Source: Aquificota bacterium | GTDB lineage: Bacteria > Aquificota > Aquificia > Aquificales > Hydrogenothermaceae | Length of the DNA stretch: 64,000 nt | Assembly: GCA_013153635.1 (NCBI GenBank) | Contig: JAADDZ010000009.1 | Location: 29,967-93,966, forward strand | Reading direction: 5' to 3' | Shown: one piece after another, positions 27,868 through 51,820 of the stretch | How the letters are laid out: every line of letters starts with the position of its first letter | Numbering within the stretch: position 1 is the first letter of the stretch | Translations under genes and position numbers: made by a program | The notes under the pieces: generated by a model | Told to the model about the DNA's origin: nothing | Database searches by the model: none | The model's input: the letters and a program-made list of their open reading frames with translations, nothing else

Positions 27868-27942
27868 GCGAGAGTAGCTCAGCGGTAGAGCACTTCCTTG
27901 CCAAGGAAGGGGTCGCGGGTTCGAATCCCGTCTCTCGCTCCA
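27868..27942 (+). tRNA. tRNA-Gly (anticodon GCC), CCA encoded
   Basis: Acceptor stem GCGAGAG/CTCTCGC, D-arm TAGCTCAGCGGTAGAGCA, anticodon arm CTTCC-TTGCCAA-GGAAG, T-arm GCGGGTTCGAATCCCGT, then T-CCA. Stands out as a GC-rich island. Confidence 0.95.
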
Positions 27943-45221: not shown

Positions 45222-45364
45222 AATTTTACACGATTAGATATGTTATCTTACGAAAAAAGTTTATATAAGCGGATTTTACTAAGATTTTCTTATTACTTTT
45301 ATATAAAAAAACTTGACAATGAATATTTAAGATTTATACTATAATACAGAGCTAAGCGAAACAG

Positions 45365-46078
45365 ATGATAATGGAGGGGTACACAGTGGATTTATACCAG
45401 TTGAGAGAGTTACAGGCTATACACACTCTCGTATTTGAGACACTGGGACAACCAGAAAAAGAAAGAGAATTCAAACTAAAATCTCTAAAAAGATGGGGCT
45501 TTGACTTACTTTTTGGTAAAAAAGCTGGGAAAGCTACATTTTTCACTTGTGAATCTGGAAAACGAGAGAAAGGGGAAAAATACAAAGAAAATGATGTACA
45601 TTACGAAGTTGAAGAAATCATAAATGAACTTCCTAAAAACAAAAAGATATATGCCCACATAGAGATGATAAATGGACGAGCTTATCTAGTTGCTGACCTA
45701 AGAGAAAGAGAAGAAAATATAGAGATTCTTCGTGTTCCTGCTGGGTCTATACTTCTTGCATACTTCAAAAAACACAGACTACATCACCTTATACAGTCCC
45801 TAAAAAATGTAGGTACTGCTTCAGAACTTGTAAAACAGAGAGGTCAAGAAGGTAAACCAGTACCTTACGAAAATCTTCCTAATGTAGCTAGAAGATTCCT
45901 AAGAGGAGCAAAAGATGTAGAAGAAAATGCAGGATTTGGGAGGGTTGCTCTTTCTTACTGGGGAGAAAACAAAGACAAAGATGCTAGATTTAGAGTATCA
46001 TGGTTATTACCTACTATTGCGCTTTTTGATATAAACATAGCAGAAAAAGCTGACAAGCTTCTTTCTGCTTTTAAATAG
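45365..46078 (+). CDS. Hypothetical protein (no family recognised)
   Basis: 237-aa ORF behind TTGACA-16-TATACT (45313..45340). The start may instead be GTG 45386, 4 nt after GGAGGGG. Coding-like composition. Confidence 0.55.
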
Positions 46079-46116
46079 AGCTGGGGAGGTTTATTAGGGG
46101 ATGCTTCTTCTCAGCT
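46079..46116 (+). terminator. Hairpin with G-U pairs, probable terminator of the preceding gene
   Basis: AGCTGGGGAGG (46079..46089) pairs with TCTTCTCAGCT (46106..46116), 11 bp including 3 G-U, followed by GTTCGCCTTTTATCTTT. Confidence 0.4.
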
Positions 46117-46135
46117 GTTCGCCTTTTATCTTTAG

Positions 46136-46183
46136 CCGGGGAGGATTTCCAACATACCAAAAAGGAAATCCGTTCCTCCCCGG
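46136..46183 (+). other. Very stable GC-rich hairpin in the prefoldin leader (function unknown)
   Basis: CCGGGGAGGATTTCC - 13 nt loop - GGAAATCC-gt-TCCTCCCCGG. No U-tract on either strand. A third small hairpin, CGAAG-n8-CTTCG + TTTTAT, sits at 46206..46228. Confidence 0.5.
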
Positions 46184-46318
46184 AATAAAAACAGACAAAG
46201 ACAATCGAAGTTTTGCATCTTCGTTTTATCAGCCTTTATTTAGTAATATAAAAATTTACAAAAATCTGTATTTTCTTTTAGAGAAAAAATTTATCTAAAT
46301 AAAAAGGAGGGTACAAAA

Positions 46319-46759
46319 ATGGCAAAAAGAAAAACAAAGGACACACCAAAAGTATCTTTAGAGGAGCTAAACAGAGAGCTAAGAGGATACATAGCTCAAA
46401 TAGAAGCTCTTAGAACAGAGATAGCCGCAATAGATACAGCGATTGCAGACCTACGAGCGGTAATAAAGACAATCAATAACATCAAAGACCTTGGAAAAGG
46501 TAAAAACATCTTGATTCCTATAGGAGCTATAGCCCAGATAGAAGCCAAGATAGAAGAACCAGATAAAGTAGTTGTCAGTATAGGAAACGGTATATCCGCA
46601 GAATTGAGTGTAGAAGAAGCTCTAGCTCAAATCGCCAAAGAAATAGCTACACTACAGGCTCTTAGAAGAGCTTTAGAAGAAGCGATAGTAGAAGCTTATG
46701 CGAAAACAGAGGAGCTACTGGAGAAAACAAAGGCTTTAGGGGCAGAAGAAGGCAAATAA
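46319..46759 (+). CDS. Prefoldin alpha-subunit-like protein (archaeal PfdA/GimC-alpha type)
   Basis: 146 aa. N- and C-terminal heptad coiled coils flank a double beta-hairpin block ILIPIGAIAQIEAKIEEPDKVVVSIGNGISAELSVEEA, which matches the archaeal PfdA pattern (ILVPLG...V.A.I...DKVLV.IG.G..VE....EA). Confidence 0.7.
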   Translation: MAKRKTKDTPKVSLEELNRELRGYIAQIEALRTEIAAIDTAIADLRAVIKTINNIKDLGKGKNILIPIGAIAQIEAKIEEPDKVVVSIGNGISAELSVEEALAQIAKEIATLQALRRALEEAIVEAYAKTEELLEKTKALGAEEGK

Positions 46760-46772
46760 GGAGGAAAATCTT

Positions 46773-46988
46773 ATGGAAGATAAAACCAAGGAGATAGAAG
46801 CTCTACAGACCTTAAAAAAAGAACTCGAAGATACCTTAAGTGTAGTTCAGGAGCTAGAAGGAGCAAGGAGGTTTTTTTACAATACAGGTACTATATGTAT
46901 AGAGATGAACAAAGAGGAAATAATAGAGTTAGTTAAAACAGAAATAGAAGAAATAGAAAATATGATAAAAGAACTAGAAACCAAATAA
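46773..46988 (+). CDS. Short prefoldin beta-like protein (71 aa)
   Basis: Helix, single hairpin (FFYNTGTICIEMNKEE), helix. Resembles PfdB (VYK.VG.LLVK.DKEE) but with a shortened N-terminal coil. GGAGGA RBS, 13 nt after the alpha gene. Confidence 0.45.
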   Translation: MEDKTKEIEALQTLKKELEDTLSVVQELEGARRFFYNTGTICIEMNKEEIIELVKTEIEEIENMIKELETK

Positions 46989-47015
46989 AAATAAAATAAA
47001 AGGAGGTCAGGCAGT

Positions 47016-47906
47016 ATGAAAAAAATACTTAGTATCTTAGTAGCAACCGTTTTATCTATATCAATATCATTTTCACAAAGCTCTGATAAAAGTCAAACTA
47101 CAGAGCAATTGATGGAAACAGCAGGGAAAAGAAGTGTAGAGAAAGTAAAGGCAGGAGAGATAGAGAAGGTAATCCAAGAAGCTTTAGCAGTTTTCCAAAA
47201 GTCCCAACAGCTCCTATTTCAGTTAACTCACAATCAGATAGACCAAGCTAAAAAAACTGTAAAAGAGATACAACAGAGATTGGAAAAACTAGACAAACAG
47301 TACAAAGGAAAAATCGATAAACTCCCTATACAAGTAGTTATAATAGAAGTAGATGGTATAGATGACATAGAGTTAGCTGAAAAACTCAAGAAAGAAGCAA
47401 AAAAACTGTTAGAAGAAAATGATGTACCTTCTGCTAGAGATATACTAAATGCTCTTAGAAATGAGATAGTAATTGAAACTCACTATCTACCTTTAGAAAT
47501 ATACAAAGACACAATAGACCTTGTAGCTAAATTTTTAGAAAAAAATAATATTCCAAAAGCTGTAGAAGCATTGAATATAGCTTTAGGTACTATCGAAATA
47601 GAGCAAACAATCATACCAAAACCTATCGCAGAAGCCGTATTGCTAGTACAAGATGCAAAAGCAATCTTCAAAGAAGATAAAAAATCAGCTCTACAACTGT
47701 TAGAAGAGGCAAAAAGAAAACTAAAACTCGCAAAAGCTCTTGGTTATATAAGAACTGAAAAAGAGATAGAGCCTCTAATAAAAGAGATAGAAAAACTTGA
47801 AAAACAGATTAGAAAAGAAACTGCTGAAAAAGTTCTATTCGAAAGTCTAGAAAAGAAAATAAAACAGACTCAAGAAAAAGCTACAGAAACAAAACAAAGA
47901 AAATAA
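47016..47906 (+). CDS. Secreted YfdX-family-like helical protein
   Basis: Signal peptide (MKKILSILVATVLSISISFS). Block ETHYLPLEIYKDTIDLVAKFLEKNNIPKAVEALNIALGTIEIE resembles E. coli YfdX [44 protein letters not shown]. Confidence 0.5.
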   Translation: MKKILSILVATVLSISISFSQSSDKSQTTEQLMETAGKRSVEKVKAGEIEKVIQEALAVFQKSQQLLFQLTHNQIDQAKKTVKEIQQRLEKLDKQYKGKIDKLPIQVVIIEVDGIDDIELAEKLKKEAKKLLEENDVPSARDILNALRNEIVIETHYLPLEIYKDTIDLVAKFLEKNNIPKAVEALNIALGTIEIEQTIIPKPIAEAVLLVQDAKAIFKEDKKSALQLLEEAKRKLKLAKALGYIRTEKEIEPLIKEIEKLEKQIRKETAEKVLFESLEKKIKQTQEKATETKQRK

Positions 47907-47922
47907 TCTGTAGCTTATCACT

Positions 47923-47946
47923 GGGGGGGTTATCCCCCTTTTTTAT
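47923..47946 (+). terminator. Rho-independent terminator
   Basis: GGGGGG-gttat-CCCCC followed by TTTTTTAT. Overlaps the 3' end of the convergent metF. Confidence 0.6.
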
Positions 47947-48818
47947 AAAAGATGTTTTATATTTTCGTAGATTTGGATAGTTGCGTCAGACTTATTTAGT
48001 GTATAAAAATGAAGACCTTTTACCCCATGCTCCAACAGGTCAATACACTGTTTTGTAGCATACTCAATACCTACCTTTTTAACTTCTTCTGGTTTATTCT
48101 CTACCGCTTCTAATCTCTTTACTAGTTCTTCTGGTATTGTAGCTCCACACATAAGTGCAAACTTTCTTATCTGTTTGAAGTTGGTTATCGGCATGATTCC
48201 CGGAATGATAGGAATGTCTATTCCTTCTTTTGATACTTTTTCTAAAAAGTCATAGAAAAATCTATTATCAAAAAACATTTGAGTAATTGCAAATTCTGCT
48301 CCAGCTTCGACTTTTTTCTTAAAGAAGAATATATCTCTTTCTAGGTTAGGACTCTCTGGGTGTCCTTCTGGATAGGCGGCGGTAGCGATACAAAAGTGAT
48401 TTCCAAAGTTTTCTTTTATGAGTTGTATCAGCTCAACTGCGAATTTACAGCTATCTTTTGGTATCTCAAAATCTTTTATATCAGCAGGAATATCTCCTCT
48501 TAGGGCTAATATATTTTCTATTCCTATCTTTTTGTAGTCTGTTAGTATTTCTAATATTTCTTCTTTTGTATGTCCTATACATGTAAGGTGAGCCATCACA
48601 GTGAGGTTTGTTTTTTCATGTATCTTTTTCACAATGTTTCTAGTTCTATCTCTTGTACTTCCACCTGCTCCGTATGTAACTGATACAAAAGTAGGATTTA
48701 GTGATTCTAACTCTCTTATGGTATTGAACAACTGGTTTTCTGCTTGTGAATTTTTGGGAGGGAAGAACTCAAAAGAGATGCTCTTATTTACCTGTTTAAG
48801 GATATTCGAGATTTTCAT
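47943..48818 (-). CDS. metF: 5,10-methylenetetrahydrofolate reductase
   Basis: SFEFFPPK and [10 protein letters not shown] blocks, TIM-barrel length of 291 aa. Confidence 0.9.
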
Positions 48819-50543: not shown

Positions 50544-51563
50544 ATGATAAATATTAAGCCTTTAATAAACCCTTACGAATACATACAAATCACAAAACCA
50601 AAAGGGTACTCTATATCCTTAAAAGTGGGAGAGATAGTAAAAGCAGAAGTGGTAGATATACTTCCCTCTGGTGGTGTAGTTATAAGAATGAAAGGAGCTT
50701 ACATAACAGTAAGGACAGAGATTCCACTCCAAAAAGATAGTTCTTTGCTTTTACAGATTTTACAACTTCCCGAAGATAACAGGCTAAAAATATCACTCTT
50801 ATCAGTGCTTAATCAAAAAGGACAGATAAACATAAACAAAGCTGAATTTTCAAGATTGGATATAAAGTCTCTAGCTTCTCTTATAGATATTGAGAATGTA
50901 ACCGAGTTTGAAAAAATTATGCTTTTTCAGATAATAAAAGAGAAAATATCCCCTTATAGAAATGTTATCTATCCCTTATCGATAAACAGTATATATCCTG
51001 ACAATCTAAGATATGCAGTATACAACAGCGGTATATTTCTAGAGTCAAAACTAAAAAATATCTTAAAAGGCAAAAAAGAAGACCTAAAGAATGATATAAA
51101 AGCGAATCTTTTACAGCAAATAGAAGATAACAACCTGTTTCATAATCTACTACAGACCAATACAAAAAAGAAAGCTCTCCTAAATGATATATATCTATAC
51201 CAGTTACTATCTAAACTCACAGAATCAGTGTATACATACATACCGATAAGTCTTAAACAGATAAAAAACTTCGACTTTTCTTACAAAAGAGAACAAAATG
51301 GAGGAAATTTTGTCAAACTAGACCTATCTTTTGAAGAAAAAGGTAGAGTTCTTGTCATAGTAACTTATTACCAAAACTATCTTAATATTTTTTTCAAATT
51401 TGAAGACAGTGATTTTAAAAAACAGGCAGAGAATCATATAGACAAACTAAAACAAAAACTCTCACCTATAAAAATAAATATCTTCTTTATAGAAGATAAA
51501 GTACCCTTTGATAGATTAGAAACATTCGAAATATCAAAACATCTCTTGGATATAAAAACATGA
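50544..51563 (+). CDS. Hypothetical protein, possible FliK-like hook-length-control domain protein
   Basis: C-terminal block FVKLDLSFEEKGRVLVIVTYYQNYLNIFFKFEDSDFKKQAENHIDKLKQKL resembles the Flg_hook pattern. Translationally coupled to an FlhB-CTD-like gene. Confidence 0.4.
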   Translation: MINIKPLINPYEYIQITKPKGYSISLKVGEIVKAEVVDILPSGGVVIRMKGAYITVRTEIPLQKDSSLLLQILQLPEDNRLKISLLSVLNQKGQININKAEFSRLDIKSLASLIDIENVTEFEKIMLFQIIKEKISPYRNVIYPLSINSIYPDNLRYAVYNSGIFLESKLKNILKGKKEDLKNDIKANLLQQIEDNNLFHNLLQTNTKKKALLNDIYLYQLLSKLTESVYTYIPISLKQIKNFDFSYKREQNGGNFVKLDLSFEEKGRVLVIVTYYQNYLNIFFKFEDSDFKKQAENHIDKLKQKLSPIKINIFFIEDKVPFDRLETFEISKHLLDIKT

Positions 51564-51820
51564 AAAAAAAGGCTGTAGCTCTAAACTACGAAAAAAATAA
51601 AGATTTAGCCCCAAAAGTAAAGGCAAAAGGGGAAGGTCTGATAGCCGAAAAAATAATACAGATAGCCCATCAAAACAACATTCCTATAAAAGAGGATAAA
51701 GAACTTATACAGATACTATCCTCTATCCCTTTAGACCAAGAAATCCCTCCAGAACTTTACAAAGCAGTGGCAGAGATTTTTGCCTATATTTACTCTATAA
51801 GTAAGAAAAAAATTGACTAA
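51560..51820 (+). CDS. FlhB C-terminal-domain-like small protein (YlqH/EscU-CTD family)
   Basis: 86 aa. AVALNYEKNKDLAPKVKAKGEGLIAEKIIQIAHQNNIPI.EDKELIQIL... matches the type III export switch C-terminal domain. Confidence 0.75.
   Translation: MKKKAVALNYEKNKDLAPKVKAKGEGLIAEKIIQIAHQNNIPIKEDKELIQILSSIPLDQEIPPELYKAVAEIFAYIYSISKKKID

Follow-up and report, generated by a model that had tools for sequence, protein, structure and literature searches.

Background

Gamma-prefoldin (gamma-PFD) is widely used as a scaffold for nanomaterials. In Methanocaldococcus jannaschii this protein, a paralogue of the alpha subunit of prefoldin, binds neither canonical alpha nor canonical beta, assembles with itself through beta-sheet interfaces into filaments in vitro as well as in vivo, and is induced 26-fold by lethal heat shock (PMC11117396). 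A 2024 paper still calls gamma-PFD "unique" to M. jannaschii and regards it as unclear what role the protein has, and which form it takes, in the cell (PMC11117396). The filament has been seen by cryo-electron microscopy (6VY1; PMC12005783), and TERM, a variant of gamma-PFD in which one beta-sheet interface is inactive, caps the filaments and sets their length (PMC4895442). The other close system is the canonical alpha2-beta4 prefoldin, represented by 1FXK of M. thermautotrophicus and 2ZDI of Pyrococcus horikoshii. Here we describe a bacterial gene, A, which on sequence grounds we place in the gamma-prefoldin clade, together with its short partner gene b and the operon around them. Both lie in 64,000 nucleotides (nt) of DNA from an Aquificota bacterium of the family Hydrogenothermaceae (contig JAADDZ010000009.1, positions 29,967 to 93,966). 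This whole stretch is called the window, and positions below refer to it.

An original prediction, made from the letters of the window alone, had seen in this locus an archaeal-type prefoldin module in a bacterium. Further genes are referred to by letters: U for UPF0128, R for a gene of 240 amino acids (aa), m and M for two membrane proteins and Y for YfdX, while A denotes the gamma-type prefoldin and b the mini-beta.

Prefoldin-like pair A and b

Gene A (46319..46759, + strand) encodes 146 aa. The protein had been taken for an alpha-class prefoldin, and it indeed scores above threshold against both Prefoldin PF02996 (86.8 bits, E 1.4e-24; cutoff 23.2) and TIGR00293, the NCBIfam prefoldin-alpha equivalog (96.7 bits; cutoff 53.9). 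Its best match among all PDB sequences is 6VY1, entered as "Prefoldin subunit alpha 2" (E 7e-33, 116.8 bits), and the alignment to 6VY1_A runs ungapped over residues 16-144, that is 129 aa at 50% identity. The canonical alphas 1FXK_C and 2ZDI_C reach 41.7 and 39.1 bits, respectively (E about 1e-9, ~30% identity). Alignments to all three chains predict for A the layout of coiled coil, two beta-hairpins and coiled coil, and both hairpins are covered in the 1FXK_C and 2ZDI_C alignments. The orthologue in the nearest relative recovered, a Hydrogenothermaceae metagenome-assembled genome (MAG; locus L001), is 90% identical.

An exhaustive search of 1.84 billion representatives returned about five clusters (at 50% identity) below 1e-22, followed by a sharp gap. 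Among these is the cluster of Q58064, the M. jannaschii gamma-PFD; every member of this cluster that has a name is from Methanocaldococcus or Methanococci. Below the gap come a few crenarchaeal intermediates and then the bulk of canonical alphas, near 1e-10. In a neighbour-joining tree of alpha-class prefoldins (145 columns, 100 bootstraps), the bacterial A proteins and gamma-PFD form one clade with 88% bootstrap, apart from the canonical alphas. Within it, Methanocaldococcus and Thermaceae form subgroups with 100% support each, and a group of Aquificota type has 74%; the grouping of Methanocaldococcus with Thermaceae reaches only 52%, and the direction of transfer between the domains is left undecided by this tree. 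Because 6VY1 scores far above the canonical alphas and the clade has 88% bootstrap, we assign A by sequence to the gamma-prefoldin clade, as a bacterial member closer to gamma-PFD than to canonical alphas. A separate bacterial lineage of prefoldin alpha (P0547, bacterium 3DAC / Dictyoglomota), 31% identical to A of the window, falls outside the gamma-type clade.

Exactly 13 nt after A, as had been noted from the letters, and with its own GGAGG site, begins gene b (46773..46988, + strand; 71 aa). Its match to Prefoldin_2 PF01920 is marginal (29.5 bits, cutoff 27.6; profile positions 19-84 of 106), and against the beta equivalog TIGR02338 it stays below cutoff (14.5 bits, cutoff 73). A family profile built from 25 members of the b family finds in the PDB 2ZDI_A (1.5e-6), 3AEI (6e-6), human PFDN2, 2ZQM and 1FXK A/B. 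Its alignments are confined to the hairpin with the helix ends next to it (2ZDI_A residues 33-86; 3AEI residues 21-81), and through the alignments to 2ZDI_A and 3AEI a single beta-hairpin with flanking helices is predicted for b. The conserved core of the family, LPxGRxxFYxxGxLxVEVxKEEAxxLL, is centred on the hairpin; the helices are variable and mostly very short.

Long coiled-coil arms, such as those of a protein of ~105-120 aa, are missing from b, a protein of 71 aa in the window and of 49-79 aa in the majority of lineages. Its length is 49-56 aa in Desulfurobacteriaceae, 55-79 in Hydrogenothermaceae, 93-99 in Aquificaceae and 112-114 in Thermaceae; the Thermaceae proteins carry an extra C-terminal helical extension of ~50 aa. 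With 62% identity to its counterpart in L001, b evolves fast compared with A. By its profile matches, b is probably a real yet strongly truncated beta-class prefoldin. The beta-like character proposed for the 71-aa protein is supported at the level of class (PF01920 marginally, and the family profile to solved betas), and it is no normal beta subunit, its coiled-coil arms being too short.

The two genes travel together. Of the bacterial loci whose sequence continues past A, 47 of 47 have a b-like open reading frame (ORF) after it. The same arrangement occurs in Methanocaldococcus: on metagenome contigs whose gamma-PFD is 93-96% identical to the 6VY1 sequence, a b ORF of 56 aa overlaps the 3´ end of the gamma-PFD gene, and on a contig with the exact M. 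jannaschii gamma-PFD a 54-aa b ORF (…FLKSLPEGRRVYIEMSGIWIEVTKEEAINYL…) does likewise. In the genomes of bacteria and Methanocaldococcus, the mini-beta is therefore a universal partner of the gamma-type prefoldin, and wherever sources name b-family proteins they are called "hypothetical protein". In the Thermaceae / Oceanithermus loci (L040-L046) the A-b pair stands alone; in one of them, L045, it adjoins a transposase-like ORF.

Compared with M. jannaschii gamma-PFD (Q58064), A has the same alpha-class layout and the same length, belongs to the same supported clade, has a mini-beta gene downstream and comes from a host of hot hydrothermal vents. It differs in its bacterial host and in its operon, shared with UPF0128 and YfdX and, in relatives, also with R, m and M; none of these five is found near the archaeal gamma-PFD gene on the Methanocaldococcus contigs. 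Filaments and heat induction are published for the M. jannaschii protein only, the bacterial members being known from sequence.

Distribution of the pair

In a set of 5.8 billion proteins there are 92 close clusters of A, and the names attached to them are all bacterial. Named hosts are Persephonella, Aquifex aeolicus, A. pyrophilus and Oceanithermus, with the annotation "prefoldin subunit alpha". A scan of genomes yielded 48 loci with A, from Hydrogenothermaceae, Aquificaceae, Desulfurobacteriaceae, Thermaceae and MAGs labelled WOR-3 and Thermodesulfobacteriota; plasmid and phage collections contained none. By the source names in the scans, every host that is named, for the gamma-type clade as for R, is a thermophile of hydrothermal vents. 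Terrestrial hot-spring Aquificales (Sulfurihydrogenibium, Hydrogenobacter, Thermocrinis) did not turn up, in scans that depend on patterns and hence give no proof of absence.

NCBI and UniProt already carry annotations of prefoldin alpha for Aquificota, with Aquifex aeolicus among them. What remains of the idea of a prefoldin in a bacterium is thus the presence of an alpha-class and a short beta-like gene beside YfdX; presence as such is not new. The outcomes that the original prediction had feared, a generic coiled coil or genes absent or degraded in relatives, did not come about: the genes are conserved in relatives.

Operon of the window

Four ORFs follow one another on the + strand (45365-46078, 46319-46759, 46773-46988 and 47016-47906 in the ORF listing), so the same-strand cluster first seen in the letters stands, at unchanged positions. 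Each of the four genes is preceded by a ribosome-binding site of GGAGG type. A promoter-like site of sigma-70 type, TTGACA-16-TATACT, lies at 45313..45340 (+ strand); it is a consensus match alone (11 of 12 positions), and at ~45 nt 5´ of the UPF0128 start its position is compatible with an operon promoter. A strong intrinsic terminator (47923..47947, + strand; hairpin 47923-47939), made up of GGGGGGGTTATCCCCCT and the T run after it, marks the predicted operon end. We read UPF0128, gamma-type prefoldin, mini-beta and YfdX as a single operon, running from the putative promoter at 45313 to the terminator at 47923. Window proteins are 100% identical to the NCBI records NPA51654/NPA51655, which belong to a contig of 123 kb. 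The sole Rfam match at gathering level across the whole window is a tRNA gene at 27868-27939.

The first gene, U (45386..46078, + strand), had been described as a 237-aa protein of no recognisable family. It belongs to UPF0128, with full-length matches to PF03673 (E 8.5e-96; cutoff 21 bits) and TIGR00703 (320.6 bits, cutoff 155.4; E 1e-96). The longest ORF, from ATG 45365, has 237 aa. Because most homologues are 230 aa long and a GGAGGGG Shine-Dalgarno site lies 7 nt before GTG 45386, translation probably starts at this GTG and gives 230 aa, the ORF from 45365 being seven codons too long. Across phyla UPF0128 proteins are 55-89% identical. An AlphaFold2 model of U has a mean predicted local distance difference test (pLDDT) of 93.4, and a structure search of the PDB gave no significant fold match (best E 0.025, template-modelling (TM) score 0.13), only faint matches to repeat fragments of PUR-alpha. 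Sequence matches to cytochrome c are spurious. According to this model, UPF0128 may represent a fold without solved relative.

At the other end of the operon, gene Y (47016..47906, + strand; 296 aa) matches PF10938 (E 5.1e-21, 75.7 bits; cutoff 26.6), in agreement with its database name 'YfdX family protein' (NPA51655.1). Residues 1-19 form a hydrophobic stretch that resembles a signal peptide, judged by hydropathy alone. The description as a secreted YfdX-like protein is in line with both observations.

UPF0128 occurs without prefoldin as well. In the gammaproteobacterium Methylomarinovum tepidoasis (L049, 6418-8646) the order is DUF308-UPF0128-YfdX. A contig with the UPF0128 of the campylobacterote Nitratiruptor sp. 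YY09-18 (L050, 6461-8397) shows BON-UPF0128-R, with a DegP-like protease and a two-component system nearby. Such prefoldin-free contexts hint at a theme of envelope or stress.

The spacer between U and A (46079-46318) had been interpreted as a structured leader RNA. It contains instead what we identify by sequence as the remnant of a deleted R gene, which in relatives is an intact 240-aa gene between UPF0128 and A. The ORF at 46101-46298 matches R through its first 28 codons only (46101..46184, + strand; tblastn with R of locus L003, 54% over 28 aa, E 1.4e-5). The DNA is colinear with L001 up to 46195 and again from 46280; in between, ~616 nt of R are replaced by 84 unrelated nt (46196..46279, + strand), which have no homology to L001 and contain a weak terminator-like hairpin at 46206-46223. 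Another hairpin, at ~46137-46190, folds well; it lies inside the retained R codons (SRGGFP…GNPFLPG) and shows no consensus pairs across 21 intact R genes. The fold z-score of the region is modest (-2.4) and the spacer 46079-46318 has no Rfam match. Gene-stump match, lack of an Rfam family, unconserved hairpin and modest z-score together rule out a conserved leader RNA.

A second deletion relative to L001 removed ~1 kb with m and M between b and YfdX (junction 46989-47015). Both genes are also missing from the cluster in several other Hydrogenothermaceae. A weak match to m (51683-51778, E 0.01) lies in an unrelated 86-aa ORF at 51560-51820 and was rejected. The ratio of nonsynonymous to synonymous substitutions (dN/dS) is ~0.03 for U (against L015), 0.04 for A (against L001) and ~0.04-0.05 for Y; dN is far below dS for all three, with dS saturated and the estimates accordingly rough. 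Given that the genes left in place are intact and that their dN lies far below dS, we regard the operon of the window, as judged from its sequence, as a reduced yet maintained version of a cluster conserved among hydrothermal-vent thermophiles.

The cluster in relatives

The conserved modules of this cluster are U, R, A, b, m and M, joined in some lineages by YfdX (in Hydrogenothermaceae only) or DUF505 (in Aquificaceae). The m protein (~160 aa) has one N-terminal membrane anchor and the M protein (~185 aa) about four transmembrane helices. The order U-R-A-b(-m-M) recurs in 31 loci from Hydrogenothermaceae, Desulfurobacteriaceae and MAGs labelled WOR-3. In Aquifex aeolicus VF5 (L056, AE000657.1, 7001-12149) the order A-m-M-U-R-b-DUF505 comprises seven touching or overlapping genes. 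The genome sequence dates from 1998; DUF505, here a protein of 656 aa, is found only in the Aquificaceae version. The modules also recombine: A-b alone is found in Thermaceae and Methanocaldococcus, A-b-m-M in some MAGs, and U-R alone beside BON and DegP in Nitratiruptor.

R is intact in 37 of 37 relatives with full coverage. Among 39 matches of the R family, the window holds the sole stump, the others being intact or simply cut by a contig end. The family has no Pfam domain and only 142 relatives, and its identity required a structure search. By sequence there are only sub-threshold signals of Csm5 (TIGR01899, 17.8 bits against a cutoff of 38.3; a weak N-terminal motif match). When the AlphaFold2 model of the intact R of L001 (pLDDT 95.9) is compared by Foldseek, the top 22 matches are all Csm5 (E 3e-7 to 2e-3, TM score 0.50-0.62). 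The intact R of relatives is thus predicted by its model to adopt a Csm5-like fold of the repeat-associated mysterious protein (RAMP) type, outside CRISPR loci. Csm5, the RAMP subunit of type III-A CRISPR systems, is its closest relative; R is shorter (240 aa against 300-400 aa), stays below the Csm5 sequence threshold and has no cas genes among the identified genes of cluster loci. Known defence families were searched for among the components with PADLOC, and none was found apart from a coiled-coil artefact to LmuB; on this search the reading as a known defence system was rejected.

Discussion

The analysis establishes the family assignments, the clade of A and its pairing with b in bacteria and archaea alike, along with the signals of the operon and the two deletions. 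From these we favour, with somewhat better than even confidence, a mechanism built on analogy with the archaeal system, in which a gamma-type filament would act as holdase and the mini-beta would dock onto it, capping or edging the filament. By homology, the two beta-hairpins of A would join its copies into homo-oligomeric filaments, and the coiled coils of these filaments would hold unfolding proteins at high temperature, as an ATP-independent holdase. Such filaments would need no group II chaperonin. The architecture of b suggests that its one hairpin could dock where a beta-sheet interface of A is free. The docked b might then cap or edge the polymer, and thereby set filament length or yield small oligomers.

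TERM provides the precedent for the last step, and b may be the natural counterpart of this engineered cap (Whitehead 2008; Glover 2016, PMC4895442). Both would have one functional beta-sheet interface, and exactly one hairpin is predicted in b. There are two important differences. Firstly, TERM has the full length of gamma-PFD, including the long coiled coil, and its second interface is mutated. Secondly, b occurs naturally, has a gene of its own and is a beta-class protein whose helices are short.

Several points weigh against the filament and its proposed cap. Filament formation may differ at 50% identity, and the bacterial proteins are known as sequences. M. jannaschii itself encodes b yet shows filaments in vivo, so that b does not abolish polymerisation. 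The fast evolution of b and its length range of 49-114 aa mean that its role may differ by lineage. Moreover, the tight linkage to UPF0128, the RAMP-like protein and the membrane proteins suggests that the pair may serve a process more specific than general proteostasis.

This linkage leads to a different explanation, in which the A filament and b would be structural parts of a larger, undescribed thermophile machine that also includes UPF0128, R and m/M. We hold it to be unlikely. The machine could, for example, be an RNA- or envelope-associated stress assembly, and general chaperoning would be secondary. The explanation draws on the gene order recurring in 31 loci, the seven contiguous genes of Aquifex aeolicus, the confident Csm5-like RAMP fold predicted for R outside any CRISPR locus and the high identity of U across phyla. 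Further, U-R and U-YfdX pairs recur beside BON, DegP and DUF308 in Nitratiruptor and Methylomarinovum. However, the modules are separable, as the solitary A-b of Thermaceae and Methanocaldococcus and the solitary U-R of Nitratiruptor demonstrate, the components match no known defence families, and the association rests on gene order. If such a machine existed, the system of the window would be crippled by the loss of R, m and M. Against this reading, purifying selection on A, b, U and Y has persisted in the lineage of the window since this loss.

An extension of the same thought is offered as speculation of low probability. Rather than the oddity of a single methanogen, gamma-PFD might be an archaeal offshoot of a two-component system that is mainly bacterial and consists of the filament subunit with a dedicated mini-beta as its cap. 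Among Aquificota and neighbours this system might form part of an undescribed, thermophile-specific machine with UPF0128 (of a fold without solved relative), a CRISPR-independent Csm5-like RAMP and the membrane pair, as a cytoskeleton-like or ribonucleoprotein stress assembly of vent thermophiles.

According to the canonical picture, which was also that of the original prediction, A and b would form an alpha2-beta4-like hexamer and hand nascent or unfolded chains to GroEL. No group II chaperonin partner is known in Aquificota, which we count against this picture. The two proteins do belong to the classes that build the hexamer and share with 1FXK and 2ZDI the principle of hairpin-mediated assembly, their genes are adjacent and probably co-translated, and in the 1FXK architecture the alpha dimer has four hairpin docking sites for single-hairpin subunits. 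The adjacency of the genes is itself a difference from the canonical systems. Yet A is far nearer to the filament-forming gamma-PFD than to hexamer-forming alphas, to which it is only ~30% identical. The coiled coil of b is roughly half as long as that of a canonical subunit or shorter, most of both arms is missing (49-79 aa against ~105-120) and the protein fails TIGR02338 (14.5 against 73), so that four of the six 'tentacles' would be stubs. Gamma-PFD, in addition, does not bind canonical beta (PMC11117396). Because of the clade of A and the short arms of b, the canonical hexamer is less likely than a filament with a cap; we consider it quite unlikely, and in this respect the original prediction was not upheld. 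As a whole, that prediction was for the most part correct in what it observed and in part correct in how it explained it.

Finally, that the remaining genes are a decaying relic, heading for loss without current function after the two deletions relative to L001 and with the only R gene in 39 reduced to a stump, is very improbable given four intact ORFs, each with its Shine-Dalgarno site, between a promoter-like site and a terminator, dN/dS of ~0.03-0.05 for U, A and Y, and the absence of m-M from the cluster in several other Hydrogenothermaceae.

Searches of the accessible literature for a bacterial gamma-PFD, UPF0128, MJ0648 and the small downstream ORF found nothing relevant. In annotations and searchable literature we found no record of the gamma-type assignment, the breadth of the bacterial clade, the mini-beta partner in two domains or the cluster.

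If our assumptions are true, then the gamma-PFD family belongs mostly to bacteria and has a wide distribution in vent thermophiles, and each gamma-type member has a conserved, unannotated one-hairpin partner, a candidate natural regulator of filament length or nucleation. The bacterial links to UPF0128, a stand-alone RAMP protein, membrane proteins and YfdX would point to function, and the in vivo role and control of gamma-PFD would become open to simple experiments. The system would also show a prefoldin-type chaperone working in cells without group II chaperonin.

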